Shown piece by piece: positions 10,247 through 22,528 of a stretch of DNA of 64,000 bases. This DNA comes from Shigella phage phi25-307. Each line of letters opens with the position of its first letter. Within the stretch, counting starts at the first letter, position 1. Made by a program: the position numbers and the translations under genes. The stretch lies in sequence record MG589383; one strand, written 5' to 3'. A model generated the notes under the pieces. It saw only the letters and a list, made by a program, of their open reading frames with translations. It had not been told where the DNA came from and made no database searches.

Positions 10247-10608
10247 TATAGACTCTCAGTAAAGGTACGAGCGATAACATCGCGCTGCTGTTCCGGAGTC
10301 AGAGAGTTAAAGCGAACTGCATAACCGGATACACGGATGGTCAGCTGTGGATATTTTTCAGGATGCTTAACTGCATCTTCCAGAGTTTCGCGACGCAGAA
10401 CGTTAACGTTCAGGTGTTGACCACCTTCAATTTTAACTTTAGGTTGATGTTCAATTTCAATTTCACGGGCATTCAAACCGTAGAAAATTTCCGGGTCTAC
10501 AATAGCGTCTTCTTTAAAAGTCTTAGAGACGATAATCCGGGCTTGAGTACCGTCTTCAAAATAAATAGTGCCTTTATGTACACCTTCAAGAATTTGATAT
10601 GCTTTCAT
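10246..10608 (-). CDS. autonomous glycyl-radical cofactor (GrcA/YfiD-like)
   Basis: C-terminal ~60 aa [60 protein letters not shown] is the glycyl-radical domain (RVSGY), near-identical to enterobacterial GrcA as recalled. Confidence 0.85.
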
Positions 10609-10614
10609 ATAACC

Positions 10615-10923
10615 TCAATTAGAAAATAAATTTATCCAAGATTTTTCTTTAATCAAAAATGGGTCGGAATTAAACGCCATTAAACTTTGAGTAATTAATC
10701 CCTTAAATGACCCATCAATAAATTCCATTTTGAAATGTGGAATACTAGTCATCAACCGTGCATTAGGAGCAGTACAAAGAACATGCTGCCCTGCGAACGG
10801 ACCTTTAGTCAAACGATATCGTTTAGGTTTAAAATGGTAAATCTCATAATTTTCTACAAGAGCCCTTTTATTGCATACTGGGCTGTTATAACAATACTCA
10901 AAAACTTCAATAGTGGTCATCAT
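10615..10923 (-). CDS. hypothetical protein, ~102 aa
   Basis: ORF track frame; start refined to ATG 10921-10923 within ATGATGA overlap with upstream stop. Confidence 0.5.
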   Translation of the reverse strand: MMTTIEVFEYCYNSPVCNKRALVENYEIYHFKPKRYRLTKGPFAGQHVLCTAPNARLMTSIPHFKMEFIDGSFKGLITQSLMAFNSDPFLIKEKSWINLFSN

Positions 10924-11459
10924 TGCATTCCAATCACAAAAAATTGAGGACGAGCAATACCGCCGATGCAATATTTGCTTTTGCAGCAGTGCTGTACTGA
11001 TTTAATATGGACATTGTAAATCTTATCCATATCAGGAGCTTTAATAGGCTCGTCAATTATATACAGAATACGAGAAAGCGTTAATCCACGGAATTTAGAA
11101 CCTTCATTGCCAATAAAACTACGGACAGAATCAGTAAATAAACGGAATCGAATATCATCGCTAGAATAACGAGAAAATTCTTTTTTAATGTTGCCAACAG
11201 AAATTTTAGCATAAGCTGAAGTATTAGAAAGAACAATAACTGTTCCACCATCGAGCAGCCAATTAGCGGCAAAATTAGTTACTGCAGTTGATTTACCAGA
11301 TTGTCTGCCACCATCTAAACGAAGTGTACAGTACTGCTTGAGTACGTCTTCAAATGGTGGGGCATAACCGTTCTTACAAATTTCTTCTACTCTAGCATCA
11401 GAATGGTGTGTAAAAGCATTCATCAGGGATAGATAAGGTCCAGTTAAAAATGTTCTCAT
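10920..11459 (-). CDS. P-loop kinase-like protein, 179 aa
   Basis: Walker A GGRQSGKST and hydrophobic strand TVIVLSNTS (cf. T4 polynucleotide kinase GCPGSGKST / VIISDTN); Walker B-like ILYIIDEP. Confidence 0.6.
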   Translation of the reverse strand: MRTFLTGPYLSLMNAFTHHSDARVEEICKNGYAPPFEDVLKQYCTLRLDGGRQSGKSTAVTNFAANWLLDGGTVIVLSNTSAYAKISVGNIKKEFSRYSSDDIRFRLFTDSVRSFIGNEGSKFRGLTLSRILYIIDEPIKAPDMDKIYNVHIKSVQHCCKSKYCIGGIARPQFFVIGMQ

Positions 11460-11632
11460 TTAGTTTCTCTTAAGGTTGGGGCCATTCCGTGGCACATGTT
11501 AGGTCCTTCGACTCGCTATGTAAACCCATTACCGCACTTGGGCTCGACCTTATTACAGGTTGGAAAAGGTACATCACTCAGAGGACTCGACGTTCATAAG
11601 GAGAGGTTGCGTTTCCCTTTATTAGACAAGAA
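11460..11632 (-). other. 173-nt GC-rich untranslated element with internal repeats
   Basis: No ORF on either strand; three copies of a GACTCGAC-like motif; 3' part shares a ~40-nt leader with the region upstream of the 11633-11962 gene. Confidence 0.4.
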
Positions 11633-11962
11633 TTATACTCTAGGCTTTTGAGCTTGTTTGGTATTGGATTCCCATGCGGCTTTGGTAATTTTGTTAGCGG
11701 CATAACCAAAGGCACTAGATAGAACACCTTTAGAGTTGAATACATCCAATCCAATAAGTACACCTGCTGTGTTAAATTTAGGAGCAAAGTACGCATTAGT
11801 TTTAGAAAGAGCTTTTTTCAATTCAGGGTCTTGAACCAAGCCATCAAAAACGCCTTTACCATTTACTTTATATGTTACTTTGGGATTTTTAGCTTCTTCG
11901 ATAGCAGCTTTCTGTTCCGCAGATAATGTAACTTCAGTGATAAACTCTTGATATGTTTTCAT
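11633..11962 (-). CDS. internal-protein-like protein with capsid targeting sequence, 109 aa
   Basis: Starts MKTYQEFITEV (T4 internal-protein CTS); start refined to ATG 11960-11962; long leader carrying promoter 12044-12073. Confidence 0.7.
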   Translation of the reverse strand: MKTYQEFITEVTLSAEQKAAIEEAKNPKVTYKVNGKGVFDGLVQDPELKKALSKTNAYFAPKFNTAGVLIGLDVFNSKGVLSSAFGYAANKITKAAWESNTKQAQKPRV

Positions 11963-12043
11963 TTTGTTCTCTCTAGGTTTAGACCATTCCATGGCCCATG
12001 AATTGTCCATTTTCCGTATTTACCACTCCAAGTAATTATGAAT

Positions 12044-12073
12044 ATACTATCACAATTCTAGGAGAAAGTAAAC
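12044..12073 (-). promoter_or_regulatory. early sigma70-type promoter
   Basis: gtaaac 12068-12073, atacta 12044-12049. Confidence 0.45.
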
Positions 12074-12075
12074 TG

Positions 12076-12378
12076 TTATTTACCTTTAATTACTTTAGCT
12101 GCTTCGATAGCCGCTTGCTGAAGGTCGTCCATAGACATACCGAATTTAGAAGCAAAGTTATCAATTTTCTTTTCGACCGCATTCAAAGGCTTGGCCTGTT
12201 TACCTTCATTAGCGCCTGGAAGAGCGAGAATACGCTCTTTGTCAATATAAAGGCTTACAAGTTTCTTACGGTCTTTATCGGACAAATCATGAAATGAATG
12301 GGCCTTTTTATTTATAGCGGCTTCTAATTTACCTGCACTCACTCGAGCTTCAGTAATAAATTCTTGATATGTTTTCAT
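12076..12378 (-). CDS. ipII: internal protein II-like
   Basis: CTS MKTYQEFITEA; 100 aa; adjacent to ipIII as in T4. Confidence 0.75.
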   Translation of the reverse strand: MKTYQEFITEARVSAGKLEAAINKKAHSFHDLSDKDRKKLVSLYIDKERILALPGANEGKQAKPLNAVEKKIDNFASKFGMSMDDLQQAAIEAAKVIKGK

Positions 12379-12419
12379 ATGTTTCCTTTAAATGTAAATA
12401 GGCCTAAGTACAGGCCTTA

Positions 12420-12998
12420 TTAATTACCACGGGCTGCATTAGCAACGGCATAAGCGTACTGAACATTAGCGTCTTTAAACGTACCTTTAGAGGTATCTAT
12501 TTCTGCCTTAAAGCCGCCTTTAGCCATAACATCAGCAAATTCTTTACGGAAAGCCATTGCGTCAAGACCTTTCCATGATGATTTGTGCTTGGCGAATTCA
12601 AGACCAGCGTAGTTGACAGCCTTAGCTAATTTATTATCAATAACCCATTTACCGGCTTTAGGCACAAACTTCGGTCCTTTTTGTTTAGAGAACAGTTTTA
12701 AATTCCAGCGACGAAGATCACTGTCGGCTTTAACAAAAGCTGCATCTAAGTTACTAGCAACAACATCTTCAATATGAGCAAATTTAAGTCCGTCAACTTC
12801 AATATTTAGGTCGGTACGCCAGCGAAGTCCTTCCCAAGCGAAAGCTTTAAAGTCGGAAGCTTTTGTAGCTAAGTATCGTTCAAGTGGAGCAGTTTTAGGG
12901 TCAAAGCCGTTTCCACCACGATAAGTCCACTCGTCCTTATTAATGCCTTGAGCTTTTCCTGCAAAGGCCTCGGCGATAAATTCTTTATATGTTTTCAT
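12420..12998 (-). CDS. ipIII: internal protein III
   Basis: CTS MKTYKEFIAEA; 192 aa; GINKDEWTYRGGNGFDPKTAP...KAEIDTSKG matches T4 IPIII as recalled. Confidence 0.85.
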   Translation of the reverse strand: MKTYKEFIAEAFAGKAQGINKDEWTYRGGNGFDPKTAPLERYLATKASDFKAFAWEGLRWRTDLNIEVDGLKFAHIEDVVASNLDAAFVKADSDLRRWNLKLFSKQKGPKFVPKAGKWVIDNKLAKAVNYAGLEFAKHKSSWKGLDAMAFRKEFADVMAKGGFKAEIDTSKGTFKDANVQYAYAVANAARGN

Positions 12999-13024
12999 TT
13001 TTGTTCCTATTGTTTTAATTCATG

Positions 13025-13339
13025 TTATTCTTTAGGGAAGTTTTTAGAGTATGCGTCATAAAGTTTATTGCCGATGCGACGGAAGACTCTAGCTGCAAAA
13101 CGGTTTTCAGGGTTTTTAATCATGATTTGCATCATGTAAGTTCCTGCATCCGAAAGAGCTTCTTCATAGTACCCATTAATTTCTTTAAGAGTCCTACGTT
13201 TACCACCAGGACCATCAACAGTAATTTTCCATTTACCTGTAGAAGTGCGGCTCGGTGGCTCAACTTGTTCAATCCAAATATAACCACCTTCAACGCGTTG
13301 ATTGGCGGATTCTGCAATAAATTCTTTATACGTTTTCAT
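13025..13339 (-). CDS. internal-protein-like protein with CTS, 104 aa
   Basis: Starts MKTYKEFIAES; no match to IPI/II/III recognised. Confidence 0.7.
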   Translation of the reverse strand: MKTYKEFIAESANQRVEGGYIWIEQVEPPSRTSTGKWKITVDGPGGKRRTLKEINGYYEEALSDAGTYMMQIMIKNPENRFAARVFRRIGNKLYDAYSKNFPKE

Positions 13340-13369
13340 TTTTGTTTCCTTGTTTGTTTTGATAGAGTA

Positions 13370-13399
13370 ATTATACCATATTAATACTTAAGCGTAAAC
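13370..13399 (-). promoter_or_regulatory. early sigma70-type promoter (-10 TATAAT)
   Basis: gtaaac 13394-13399, attata 13370-13375. Confidence 0.5.
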
Positions 13400-13402
13400 T
13401 GT

Positions 13403-13663
13403 TTAAGCTTTACCGCCAGAAATAATTCCGAAGTTGTTAAAATCATATCCAATATCGTCAACATCTACTTTAGGGCTTGCTACAACATAAGCAATTTCAC
13501 CACGTTTTGCATAGGTGTTGATTTCTTTACCATCGCCGCCTAGGAAAGAATACCCATTACGTTTTAATGAGCCAAAGTCTTCCGCATCACCAATGAAAGC
13601 TTTAACTTTAAATTTATGACCTTCGGCATCTGCTTCAGCGATAAATTCTTGATACATTTTCAT
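13403..13663 (-). CDS. internal-protein-like protein with CTS, 86 aa
   Basis: Starts MKMYQEFIAEA; early promoter 13370-13399 just downstream. Confidence 0.7.
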   Translation of the reverse strand: MKMYQEFIAEADAEGHKFKVKAFIGDAEDFGSLKRNGYSFLGGDGKEINTYAKRGEIAYVVASPKVDVDDIGYDFNNFGIISGGKA

Positions 13664-13669
13664 TTTTCC

Positions 13670-14083
13670 TTAGTAAATTGATTTACCATAGTATTTGTAC
13701 CAAGTAGGACGCTGAGCAATTTTTTCATCTAAGCGTGCTTGACTTATCGCAATGGACGCTTCGGACGGGACATAATTATTACGAAATTCGGCAGGGATGT
13801 CGGAAATATCCTGGACAGTCGTGTCCTTGATTTTGAAACCACGTTTCAAGCATTCAGCGATTAACTCGATTTGACGTAAACGTAAAAATTCGAGTTTGTC
13901 GTAAAAGAATGTTACATGACCTGTGCCTAAGATAAATGTTGGAGAGATTTTAAAATCCTTTACACGTTTACCGTTTTGAACATGTTTACGGACTGCACCA
14001 AATACACGTGGTAATTCACGATACTCGGCCATAAGATGTTGGTCGGTCAGTTCAGAAACAAGTGTTAAATTGATACGGGTCAT
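13670..14083 (-). CDS. denV: endonuclease V (pyrimidine-dimer DNA glycosylase/AP lyase)
   Basis: [12 protein letters not shown]...[18 protein letters not shown]...TWYKYYGK matches T4 DenV as recalled; start refined to ATG 14081-14083 with GGAGG RBS. Confidence 0.9.
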
Positions 14084-14110
14084 AATTTCCTCCAAGTAGT
14101 TGATGAATGT

Positions 14111-14140
14111 ATAGTATCAAAACCCTTGGAGGAAGTAAAC
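14111..14140 (-). promoter_or_regulatory. early promoter of denV with flanking inverted repeat
   Basis: gtaaac 14135-14140, atagta 14111-14116; flanked by cctccaag/cttggagg. Confidence 0.55.
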
Positions 14141-14141
14141 A

Positions 14142-14423
14142 CTATTTTTCTGAAGCGCCTGAAATATATTTTTCAAGACGTTGTTTCATCAACGAGCCGT
14201 TCTTAGCGATTTCTTCTGGTTTATCGCACATACGCAACAAGGCTTCAAGCTTAACGATATCACTGGTGCGCTCAAATTTGCGAGTATCTATCTTACTAGC
14301 AAGTTCAGAAATACGTGCTAATAGACTTTCAGCTTCAACCAAAGCTGCACCTAGCTTAGTTGCAAATGTGTCAGTAGCTTCGTTAAGAATAGATTCTGAT
14401 AAAAATTCACTATATGTTTTCAT
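14142..14423 (-). CDS. internal-protein-like protein with divergent CTS, 93 aa
   Basis: Starts [11 protein letters not shown] from ATG 14421-14423 (ATGA overlap with e stop); lies between e and denV. Confidence 0.65.
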
Positions 14424-14908
14424 ATATACGCTTTCCAAGTTCCTGTTTTAAATGTCGAGATTACGCGTTTCGCGCGATTAGGTGTCTGACGATACCATTT
14501 AGATTGGGCTAGATTTACTGCCGCTTCGTCCCAACGTTTCTGTTGAAGCATACGAAGAGAATTAGTAAAACCAGCGACGCCTGCTACACCCATTTGGAAG
14601 ACCATATTGACCAATGCACATCGACGAACTGCATCTAAAGAATCATATACCGGTTTAAGTTTAGCATTACCCAAGATTCCGCGAACAGCTTTATCAACGT
14701 CTTCATTAAATAACTTTTCAGCCTCATCAAGGGTAATTGTACCGTTGCATTTACGTCCGATCATTCTGTCAAGTTCAGCTTTAGCTACGGCTAAAGACGG
14801 GTTCTTTGTTACTAAATGACCTATGCCAATCGTCCAAAAGCCTTCAGTGTCTTTGTATAAAGTCAGTCTAAGACCTTCGTCATTACGAAGCATTTCAAAT
14901 ATATTCAT
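14420..14908 (-). CDS. e: lysozyme (endolysin)
   Basis: [29 protein letters not shown]...[27 protein letters not shown] matches T4 lysozyme; start ATG 14906-14908 with GGGAGG RBS inside a hairpin. Confidence 0.9.
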
Positions 14909-22371: not shown

Positions 22372-22448
<77 letters not shown>

Positions 22449-22454
22449 AATATA

Positions 22455-22528
22455 TGACCCAGACCAGATTCGAACTGGTAACCTTTCCCTTATGAGGGGA
22501 CTGCTGCTAACCGTTGAGCTACAGGGCC
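22455..22528 (-). tRNA. tRNA with CAT anticodon (Met or lysidine-Ile type)
   Basis: Acceptor GGCCCTG/CTGGGTC (one mismatch), D-loop with GG, anticodon loop CTCATAA, T-arm ACCAG-TTCGAAT-CTGGT; D and anticodon stems imperfect. Confidence 0.55.

Follow-up and report, generated by a model that had tools for sequence, protein, structure and literature searches.

The 173-nt spacer at 11460-11632 of a 64,000-nt stretch from Shigella phage phi25-307 (MG589383; hereafter the window, to which all positions refer) is made up of two modules, an independently folding RNA at 11511-11620 and a translation-initiation leader at 11460-11510. The window comes from a T4-like phage of the Tequatrovirus type, and all genes discussed here lie on its minus strand. 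Module 1 folds into a pseudoknot around a three-way junction and represents a structured RNA family, shared by several apparently unrelated groups of virulent enterobacterial phages, that matches no Rfam family and nothing in the literature searched. Its parts, from 5' to 3', are the following:

11511-11620, minus strand: structured RNA domain, the whole fold (module 1, ~110 nt), from helix P1 to the 3' strand of the pseudoknot helix (PK)
11616-11620, minus strand: P1 5' strand, AAAGG, pairing with 11565-11569
11608-11614, minus strand: PK 5' strand, within the P1 loop; in the window only CGC at 11609-11611 pairs
11571-11607, minus strand: variable arm (P1c/P1a/P1b), a long irregular hairpin
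11565-11569, minus strand: P1 3' strand, CCUUU, pairing with 11616-11620
11561-11564, minus strand: P3 5' strand, UCCA, pairing with 11525-11528 and closing the three-way junction
11547-11560, minus strand: P2 hairpin, ACCU-GUAAUA-AGGU, with a GURRNA hexaloop
11532-11546, minus strand: P4 hairpin, C-GA-GCC-CAAG-UGC-G-G, stacked directly on P2
11529-11531, minus strand: junction linker UAA between P4 and P3
11525-11528, minus strand: P3 3' strand, UGGG, pairing with 11561-11564
11511-11517, minus strand: PK 3' strand; in the window GCG at 11514-11516

The strands of P1 and PK interleave, so that the two helices cross as in an H-type pseudoknot, and both are supported by covariation. PK joins the 5' side of the P1 loop to a stretch 7-8 nt downstream of P3, and a perfect three-way junction (P3, P2, P4 and the UAA linker) sits between the P1 3' strand and the PK 3' strand. 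P4 contains a GA/G internal loop, and the junction core of ~32 nt is nearly invariant. In the P2 hexaloop G1, U2, R3, R4 and A6 are kept and position 5 is free, from which we infer a GNRA-like loop with one base extruded. The variable arm is a 6-bp hairpin in T4, single-stranded in the phages Ivi and Pylas, and short or absent in other families. The strands of the long arm, CCUCUCCUYA and UGAGUGAUG (CCUCAU/AUGAGG in T4), resemble an anti-Shine-Dalgarno/Shine-Dalgarno (SD) pair; this resemblance is not found in families other than the T4-like one.

When the window was compared with Rfam 15 (4227 covariance models) at the gathering score, only two tRNAs at 22.4 kb were reported, and no family matched the spacer. 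Relaxing the threshold to E<=10 for 11300-12150 returned only four chance hits to models of eukaryotic long non-coding and small nucleolar RNAs, and 12 homologous loci searched at E<=1 gave nothing on the element. ARAGORN and the Rfam tRNA model never called the element a tRNA or transfer-messenger RNA (tmRNA); neighbouring tRNAs were found. A description of the element was not found in the literature searched, and the defining features of any described family were not found as a whole. Possible likenesses to the 23S rRNA 1093-1098 loop (GUAAUA hexaloop), the Alu domain of the signal recognition particle (UGUAAU motif), a 16S 3' GUAACAAGGU stretch, tRNA-Tyr/His-like anticodon loops (CUGUA/CUGUG) and ToxI (AAGUGC) played no part in the interpretation.

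The original prediction had pointed to this spacer as an untranslated, GC-rich and structured element that might be a small RNA or a shared translational operator. It indeed lacks a conserved open reading frame (ORF), mechanical ORFs being only 35-36 aa long, and G+C makes up 0.47-0.49 of 11450-11600, more than in the genes on either side (~0.38) and in AT-rich parts of the region such as 10550-10750 and 13300-13450 (0.25-0.32). The idea of a structured spacer or small RNA is strongly supported by a covariation-supported pseudoknotted fold that is kept far beyond close relatives, whereas the shared operator stays at the level of a possibility. Three GACTCGAC-like repeats, which had also been proposed, do not hold up: the spacer contains just two exact GTCGAGYC copies, and when one mismatch is tolerated the 33 matches in the window fall short of the 38.9 expected, so there is no repeat family. 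In relatives these sites fall in differing structural places (the P1b loop, the three-way junction and the pseudoknot tail) and are partly non-conserved, the first being replaced by GAACAUUGUUCC.

Covariation of the helices

The covariance analysis across related phages supported the fold. It was based on an alignment of 24 distinct long-form T4-like sequences (A1; P1 in columns 8-12/59-63, PK in columns 14-20/112-118), on family-wide alignments (A3 and A4, the latter with 48 distinct sequences) and on R1, a 53-position covariance model of the core. In A1, 86.7% of the cells in helices are paired, compared with 77.7% in column shuffles, and the covariation score is 0.245 compared with 0.084 (0/500 shuffles in both cases); sliding the partners by 1-3 columns lowers the score to at most 0.062. 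The closing pair of P1 (columns 12-59) is GC in 12 sequences, CG in 11 and AU in one, with none unpaired. Within PK, columns 16-116 contain CG8, AU6 and GU4, columns 17-115 contain CG22 and UA2, columns 18-114 contain CG12, UA6, AU4 and GC2, and columns 19-113 contain GC18 and CG6, the last two without any unpaired sequence. P3 varies as CG16 and GC8 at columns 65-103. RNAalifold, which was blind to the model, recovered PK and P1c independently; it was the first to find the P1c pair at columns 21-57 (AU12, CG11, GC1, none unpaired). Moreover, P1a (CUCA/UGAG) has paired one-nucleotide deletions (CUA/UAG) in four of the fetched homologous loci, which are labelled here with L-numbers (L070, L092, L076 and L080). 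An additional RNAalifold helix, GUAA/UUAC (A1 columns 96-99/106-109), was set aside: it clashes with the covarying P3 and is confined to the long-form T4-like group, and is at most an alternative or tertiary contact. Since G.U pairs are numerous, the folded and transcribed strand is the gene strand.

Family-wide, the innermost P3 pair (A4 columns 9-42) occurs as AU21, UA11, CG7, UG7 and GC2 and is unpaired in 0/48 distinct sequences. The P2 stem is invariant in 47/48 of them, and the remaining one (the second copy in L075) has an A-U to G-C double change (GCCU/AGGC). The P2 loop is found as GUAAUA, GUAACA, GUAAAA, GUAGAA, GUAGCA, GUGAAA, GUAGUA, GUGACA and GUGGCA. The C-G pair and the GC/GC pairs of P4 are near-invariant in A4; P4 covaries in diverged second copies (GCC-CGC-GGC in L017, GUC-CGC-GAC in L075, GAGAC-CGC-GUCUC in L080) and in distant members (GCG-CAA-CGC in L087, GCC-UUUU-GGC in L074). 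The UAA linker is present in 65/65 R1 hits of the first set and also in the strongly diverged second copy of L080, which R1 misses.

P1 and PK are present in every lineage with differing sequences. P1 reads GGGAA/UUCCC in T4, GGGAG/CUCCC in L019, GGGG/CCCC in nomo, GAGGG/CCCUC in Ivi and GAGUG/CACUC in Pylas, and further lineages have GGAAC/GUUCC, GCGGG/CCUGC and AGCGC/GCGCU. The forms of PK include CGCCGA/UCGGUG, ACAC/GUGU, CUCGA/UCGAG, GUGAGGG/CCCUUAC, CUCCGG/CCGGAG, UUCCGG/CCGGAA, CUUAG/CUGAG and CGGA/UCCG; among the Ivi-like phages CUCCGG/CCGGAG has changed to UUCCGG/CCGGAA, with a U.G intermediate. In an anchored test over 25 lineages, PK was sought between the 12 nt that follow the 5' strand of P1 and the 18 nt that follow the 3' strand of P3. 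Cognate helices gave 11.76 and non-cognate ones 9.13, and 0/100,000 permutations reached this mean (p ~1e-5). This test supersedes both an earlier unconstrained duplex-energy comparison of cognate and non-cognate flanks, which was weak (p = 0.04), and an automatic helix picker (p = 0.003), which often took P1a for P1.

Distribution and genomic context

A blastn search with the spacer alone matched 1107 phage records. Identity is 77-99% in Tequatrovirus-type phages and 81-89% in T4-like phages of Klebsiella, Enterobacter, Yersinia and Citrobacter. A 39-nt core (11563-11525) is 90-97% identical in 136-kb rV5-like Vequintavirus phages, in the N4-like Pylas and in 45-kb phages such as Ivi, whose genomes are otherwise unalignable with T4; there, the match falls in unannotated, ORF-free DNA. 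R1 finds one copy in the window (76.3 bits, E 3.6e-27; the next best hit has 9.3 bits) and 65 plus 36 copies at 38 bits or more in the fetched loci. Besides, pattern scans of IMG/VR and metagenomes, filtered with the covariance model, detected the fold in uncultured lineages (L072, L073, L074, L077, L088, L091, L094, L096, L110, L154 and L165). The near-identity of the core in myoviruses (T4-like and rV5-like), an N4-group podovirus and 45-kb siphovirus-like phages points to horizontal spread and to strong selection on nearly every nucleotide.

Outside phages, blastn found nothing like the spacer in 5,426 E. coli genomes. Of the 32 hits in a pattern scan covering 185,579 prokaryotic genomes, none has the P2 context, and ~17 were expected by chance according to our own estimate; all are fortuitous matches within coding sequence. 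An E. coli 'plasmid' (CP057073.1) of 137.5 kb, as long as an rV5-like phage genome, matches over the 43-nt core only, and 18 records named Campylobacter phages match the rV5-like element, A116 (MG065676.1) being 97.6% identical to nomo over 249 nt. The Campylobacter phage records and CP057073.1 are probably mislabelled or contaminant rV5-like sequences.

tRNA genes are found in 16/22 of the non-T4-like loci scanned, on the strand of the element wherever strands were compared. The order is tRNA-Glu, element and tRNA-Met in L088; in L091 the element immediately follows tRNA-Ser and precedes an intrinsic terminator; and in L073 it comes ~100 nt after four tRNAs. In rV5-like phages it lies ~500 nt upstream of a tRNA array, with a promoter-like sequence between the element and the next ORF, and in Pylas-like phages a long terminal stem encloses it within 1 kb of non-coding DNA next to tRNAs. 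The Ivi-like phages have no tRNAs, and the element begins ~25 nt past the intrinsic terminator of the endolysin gene. A sigma70-like TTGACA promoter sequence follows the element in Ivi, L184, L127 and L114 (TTGGCA in L165), and a terminator lies downstream of it in L096 and L110. Homologues of vs.8 were found only in the T4-like loci and are absent from the other families, so the fold is a self-contained unit with a function independent of vs.8. Its occurrence without a downstream gene outside T4-like phages likewise argues against a purely cis-regulatory role.

Some further features were observed around the element. In rV5-like phages the motif CCCnUAGAGGGnCUUGAwAGUGC, a small hairpin with a conserved tail, stands on both sides of it (L001 1425-1470, L012 640-690, L104 and L095) and may be a processing or promoter signal. 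The Pylas stretch (L025 972-1979; Klebsiella phage Pylas 66769-67776) is ~1 kb of ORF-free DNA beside four tRNAs, with the stem GUGCUCUU..GUUGUG / CACAAC..AAGAGCAU; the stem sequences recur farther along, and weak sub-threshold Rfam matches to permuted and beta tmRNA occur at L025 1617-1752. In the window itself only two tRNA genes (Arg-TCT and Met-CAT, 22372-22528) are present, ~11 kb from the fold, a distance that is unlike its placement in other phage families. CC31-like (Karamvirus-type) phages carry two tandem folds upstream of vs.8, the second of which is diverged (L017 8970-9235, L075 5089-5252, L080 180-323). The second copy in L080 has P2 lengthened to 8 bp, has lost the GURRNA loop and has P4 as GAGAC/GUCUC; the UAA linker and P3 are kept.

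Leader, coding sequence and neighbouring genes

The second module is a translation-initiation leader that is specific to T4-like phages and duplicated before the neighbouring internal-protein (IP) gene. The features of this region are listed in transcription order.

14920-14420, minus strand: lysozyme gene e
14095-13670, minus strand: denV
11633-14438, minus strand: IP-like gene array, five or six genes that all begin MKTY(Q/K)EFI
12044-12073, minus strand: early-promoter-like GTTTACT-N17-TAGTAT upstream of the IP leader, read from the sequence (8/12, below the scan listing)
11963-12023, minus strand: second leader copy, before the IP-like gene that starts at 11962; R1 finds no core here
11633-11962, minus strand: IP-like gene with the capsid-targeting N-terminus MKTYQEFI... 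(phrog_3966)
11460-11632, minus strand: the 173-nt spacer, between the IP-gene stop (11633-11635) and the ATG at 11459
11460-11510, minus strand: T4-like-specific 3' leader (module 2), with GAAGGAC at 11503-11509, hairpin GCCA-CGGAA-UGGC at 11481-11493 and ribosome-binding-site region AAGAGA at 11466-11471
10920-11459, minus strand: vs.8 homologue, a 179-aa P-loop protein with Walker A GGRQSGKST

A GrcA-like gene and regB lie farther along after the vs.8 homologue. The mechanical ORF of the last IP-like gene starts at 12010, 16 codons upstream of its real start at 11962.

The leader, found in T4-like homologues only, ends in AAGAGA-N8-AUG, and its invariant columns in alignment A2 are ATGGA/AAGGA and GCCANGGAA. 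Its hairpin shows no covariation and was kept as sequence. The duplication reported by the original prediction was confirmed: the 64 kb contain exactly two copies of CATGNGCCANGGAATGG, at 11482-11498 and at 11984-12000 on the minus strand, where 0.12 are expected, and in A2 the homology spans ~65 nt (11963-12023 against the element tail). What is duplicated, though, is the T4-like-specific 3' leader and not the structured core, of which R1 sees one copy in the window. The copy before the IP gene is nearer to the T4-type element tail (GGUAAAUACAGAAAUGGACAAUUCAUGCGCCACGGAAUGGCCCAAAC) than to the tail in the window itself, and aligns with the short T4-type tail from GGUAAAUAC onward. Judging from the sequence, it seems to derive from such an element by replacement of the 5' part with an early-promoter-like sequence. 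The sequence at 12044-12073 resembles the promoter consensus TTTACW-N17-TAYWAT of the PeSL promoter-terminator cassettes of PST/T4 (PMC4122927). These PeSLs of T4-type phages consist of a stem-loop followed by that promoter (Arbiol et al. 2010, PMC2839356; Comeau et al. 2014, PMC4122927), and reuse of the leader fits the modular shuffling of non-coding cassettes described for T4-type hyperplastic regions (PMC2839356, PMC4122927). A candidate PeSL inside the element, TTTACA-N17-TAACAT (9/12), was rejected: no terminator hairpin precedes it, and the region contains 6 such matches where 5.0 are expected. A terminator-like hairpin, AGGCCU-GUACUU-AGGCCU, followed by the PeSL-like AUUUACAUU, lies at 12400-12417; it immediately precedes a short-form element in L018, as a related sequence does in L020.

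Both leaders (11463-11510 and 11968-12010) carry two A-N-GGA motifs spaced by ~20 nt, of which the second is presented in the loop of a hairpin. This agrees with the usual description of CsrA-type sites, i.e. at least two A(N)GGA motifs 10-63 nt apart with one in a hairpin loop; the two motifs (GAAGGAC and CACGGAA) are conserved in A2. The SD region of the window, AAGAGA, lacks GGA, and some relatives have UAGGAA. In L003, AUACAUGGAUGA agrees at 10/12 positions with RUACARGGAUGU, the CsrA consensus from in vitro selection (SELEX). By analogy, the likeness to CsrA-type sites may serve as a lead only.

The downstream gene does encode a P-loop protein, as the Walker A motif GGRQSGKST had suggested. 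It is 88.8% identical to T4 vs.8 from the start MRTFLTGPYLS, and its residues 3-179 match phrog_1488 (a 177-position profile of unknown function; E 1.3e-77). PHROGs also gives a distant match to terminase large subunit, and Pfam only sub-threshold ones to Terminase_6N (E 0.0014) and AAA_14. Nothing similar to polynucleotide kinase was detected in these profiles, and the 'PNK-like' label it had been given was dropped.

In the T4 RefSeq record, vs.8 is annotated at NC_000866.4 64253-64912 (L112 1754-2413), 26 nt from denV, and the fold (GGGAAC..., from 64938 downward) falls within this annotated ORF; R1 detects it in T4 only in the denV/vs.8 spacer (L112 2353-2405). If this annotation were right, the element would be the N-terminal coding part of vs.8. 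The frame in T4 is open for 51-54 codons above the conserved start and includes several ATGs, but such an open frame was seen in two T4 records only. In 50/51 distinct relatives an in-frame stop lies 0-45 codons (mostly 0-25) upstream of the conserved vs.8 start, and in the window a TAA stop immediately precedes the vs.8 ATG. The reading frame is thus not conserved, indels in the element among relatives are not multiples of three, and the 177-position PHROG profile fits the short protein (residues 3-179). We regard a coding role as having practically no chance of being correct. The RefSeq vs.8 is probably ~40 codons too long, with the conserved start MRTFLTGPYLS at NC_000866 64792 (complement). 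Compared with another T4 record, the RefSeq one also has 9 nt of the leader duplicated (CTTATAGAG).

Function and relation to known systems

The reading that we favour, and to which we would give slightly less than an even chance, sees module 1 as a stable RNA that acts in trans, with a conserved partner bound at its near-invariant junction. It would act as a self-contained RNA, apparently made along with tRNAs or as a small separate gene in other phages. In T4-like phages it would be carried on the early polycistronic transcript between the denV/IP genes and vs.8 and probably be freed by processing. The junction core would offer a docking surface for a host or phage protein or a small ligand, and the RNA may help in taking over the host or countering its defences by working as a decoy or sponge, not as a cis regulator of vs.8. 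We lean to this reading because the element stands alone among tRNAs, in places with no gene to control, because conservation is extreme over ~32 nt made up of unpaired nucleotides and short helices, and because it is located in accessory regions with IP genes and tRNAs. IP genes and tRNAs have known counter-defence roles, and tRNA clusters have lately been treated as counter-defence loci. A bolder version, which we consider rather doubtful, would assign the fold to a new class of functional RNAs that stand alone, are exchanged among virulent enterobacterial phages of apparently unrelated families and are expressed with tRNAs, either as an orphan aptamer or decoy or as a new small ribozyme. 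Such an aptamer or decoy could sequester an immune or house-keeping component of the host, for example a tRNA-targeting nuclease, a tRNA-modifying enzyme or a signalling nucleotide.

Several observations weigh against a trans-acting RNA. Expression, end-mapping or binding data were not found for any member in the literature searched, and in T4-like phages no convincing promoter or terminator belonging to the element was detected. No partner emerged either: the flanking ORFs of 13 lineages share only terminase, portal and endolysin synteny and have nothing in common with the T4-like phages, and the same is true of the whole Ivi genome compared with the window. In the window PK is only 3 bp long. 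The conserved nested structure is weak (-5.8 kcal/mol against a minimum free energy of -22 for the same 120 nt), and the whole spacer folds worse than shuffles (z = +2.6); given this weak nearest-neighbour energy and the short helices, tertiary contacts, Mg2+ or a partner are probably required for folding. Finally, the T4-like element always lies 60-75 nt upstream of a same-strand ORF and is sometimes in tandem (L017, L075 and L080), a layout that also fits a cis-acting leader.

Such a leader would make module 1 a riboswitch-like aptamer or protein-binding operator that controls translation or stability of vs.8 or the IP gene through the 3' leader. In every T4-like locus the start codon follows at that distance with a conserved leader between, the junction nucleotides are kept in an aptamer-like manner while the helices covary, tandem copies occur in CC31-like phages, and the leader has the two conserved A-N-GGA motifs ~20 nt apart, one in a hairpin loop. 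Yet outside T4-like phages a promoter-like sequence, a terminator or a tRNA comes next, leaving nothing to regulate, and even within them the next gene is not always vs.8 (L015, L062 and L066 have an IP gene there). The IP-gene leader copy works without the core, and no covarying alternative pairing that sequesters the SD was found. We therefore hold cis control to be possible but not likely. A role in processing is less likely still. Here, polycistronic or tRNA-operon transcripts would be cut at a defined site, either by the element itself as a new self-cleaving ribozyme or by a host RNase that recognises its structure. Small ribozymes typically have such a compact build of pseudoknot and three-way junction, with unpaired nucleotides that hardly vary, and the element sits inside tRNA operons that need precise processing and between cistrons in T4-like phages. 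It nevertheless matches no Rfam ribozyme (hammerhead, twister, twister-sister, pistol, hatchet, hepatitis delta virus and others) even at E<=10, and no conserved candidate cleavage dinucleotide stands out at a helix end. RNase P and RNase E already process tRNA operons.

It is comparably improbable that the knot shapes the transcript by blocking 3'-to-5' exonucleases or modulating Rho or RNA polymerase, thereby stabilising the upstream IP/denV (or tRNA) transcript or permitting read-on. Its position, starting 0-15 nt past the upstream stop codon (at the denV stop itself in T4) or near the 3' end of the unit with a terminator next (L091 and L096), would suit this, as would the topology of a junction threaded by a pseudoknot. 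A stabiliser, however, needs stability, and the nearest-neighbour energy is weak; simple hairpins serve elsewhere in the genome (e.g. 12400-12417), and a purely steric role leaves the near-invariance of 32 nt across phage families unexplained. The element might also have no RNA function at all and be a recombination linker or PeSL-like promoter cassette left by the shuffling of IP-gene cassettes. PeSL cassettes are documented in T4-type phages (PMC2839356, PMC4122927), the locus is in a hyperplastic region, the duplicated leader is closer to the T4-type tail than to that of the window, and TTTACA-N17-TAACAT lies inside the element. Against this, RNA pairing has left its signatures in compensatory double substitutions, in paired deletions and in G.U intermediates that appear on one strand only; the promoter-like matches in the region are at background, and the same core occurs in phage families not known for PeSLs. 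An explanation at the DNA level is very improbable.

At minimum, Rfam gains a new candidate family, the vs.8 start is corrected, and a clear secondary-structure model becomes available. The over-extended vs.8 ORF in RefSeq masks the fold between denV and vs.8 of the intensively studied T4. Moreover, the tRNA-gene neighbourhood makes it a testable candidate for an RNA player in phage-host conflict.

Among known systems, the CsrA/RsmA-type leaders are comparable to module 2 in having two A-N-GGA motifs ~20 nt apart, one in a hairpin loop, just upstream of the ribosome-binding site; unlike them, the SD of the window has no GGA, and the motif is short. PeSLs, like the leader, are short conserved non-coding cassettes that stand in hyperplastic regions before different genes, and they could explain its duplication. 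The duplicated leader, in contrast, lies downstream of the promoter and carries a hairpin and ribosome-binding site, and the structured core is no PeSL. For module 1, riboswitch aptamers with a three-way junction and pseudoknot offer a resemblance in the conserved aptamer: covarying helices, a near-invariant junction, a GNRA-like loop for a tertiary contact, and occasional tandems. The fold differs in lacking an expression platform, a consistent downstream gene outside T4-like phages and any match to an Rfam riboswitch; depending on the phage, vs.8, an IP gene, a promoter-like sequence, a terminator or a tRNA comes next to it, which does not correspond to the downstream gene of a riboswitch.

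The mRNA of T-even gene 32 has a pseudoknotted translational operator in its intercistronic leader, where the knot nucleates binding of the gene's own product on an adjacent unstructured stretch. A pseudoknot in a T-even intercistronic leader is what the two share; they have no sequence similarity, and the fold also occurs without a downstream gene. GOLLD and ROOL are phage- or prophage-associated RNAs of unknown function that often lie beside tRNA genes. They are several hundred nt long and have Rfam models, whereas the fold is ~90-170 nt long and has none. Compared with rnaC and rnaD, the species 1 and 2 stable RNAs of T4, the fold has no sequence or structure similarity, R1 does not match them, and in T4-like phages it lies outside the tRNA cluster. 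The likeness to them lies in being a phage-encoded, structured small RNA of unknown function that is not a tRNA, and their position among tRNA genes is shared by the fold in rV5-like, Pylas-like and several uncultured phages.

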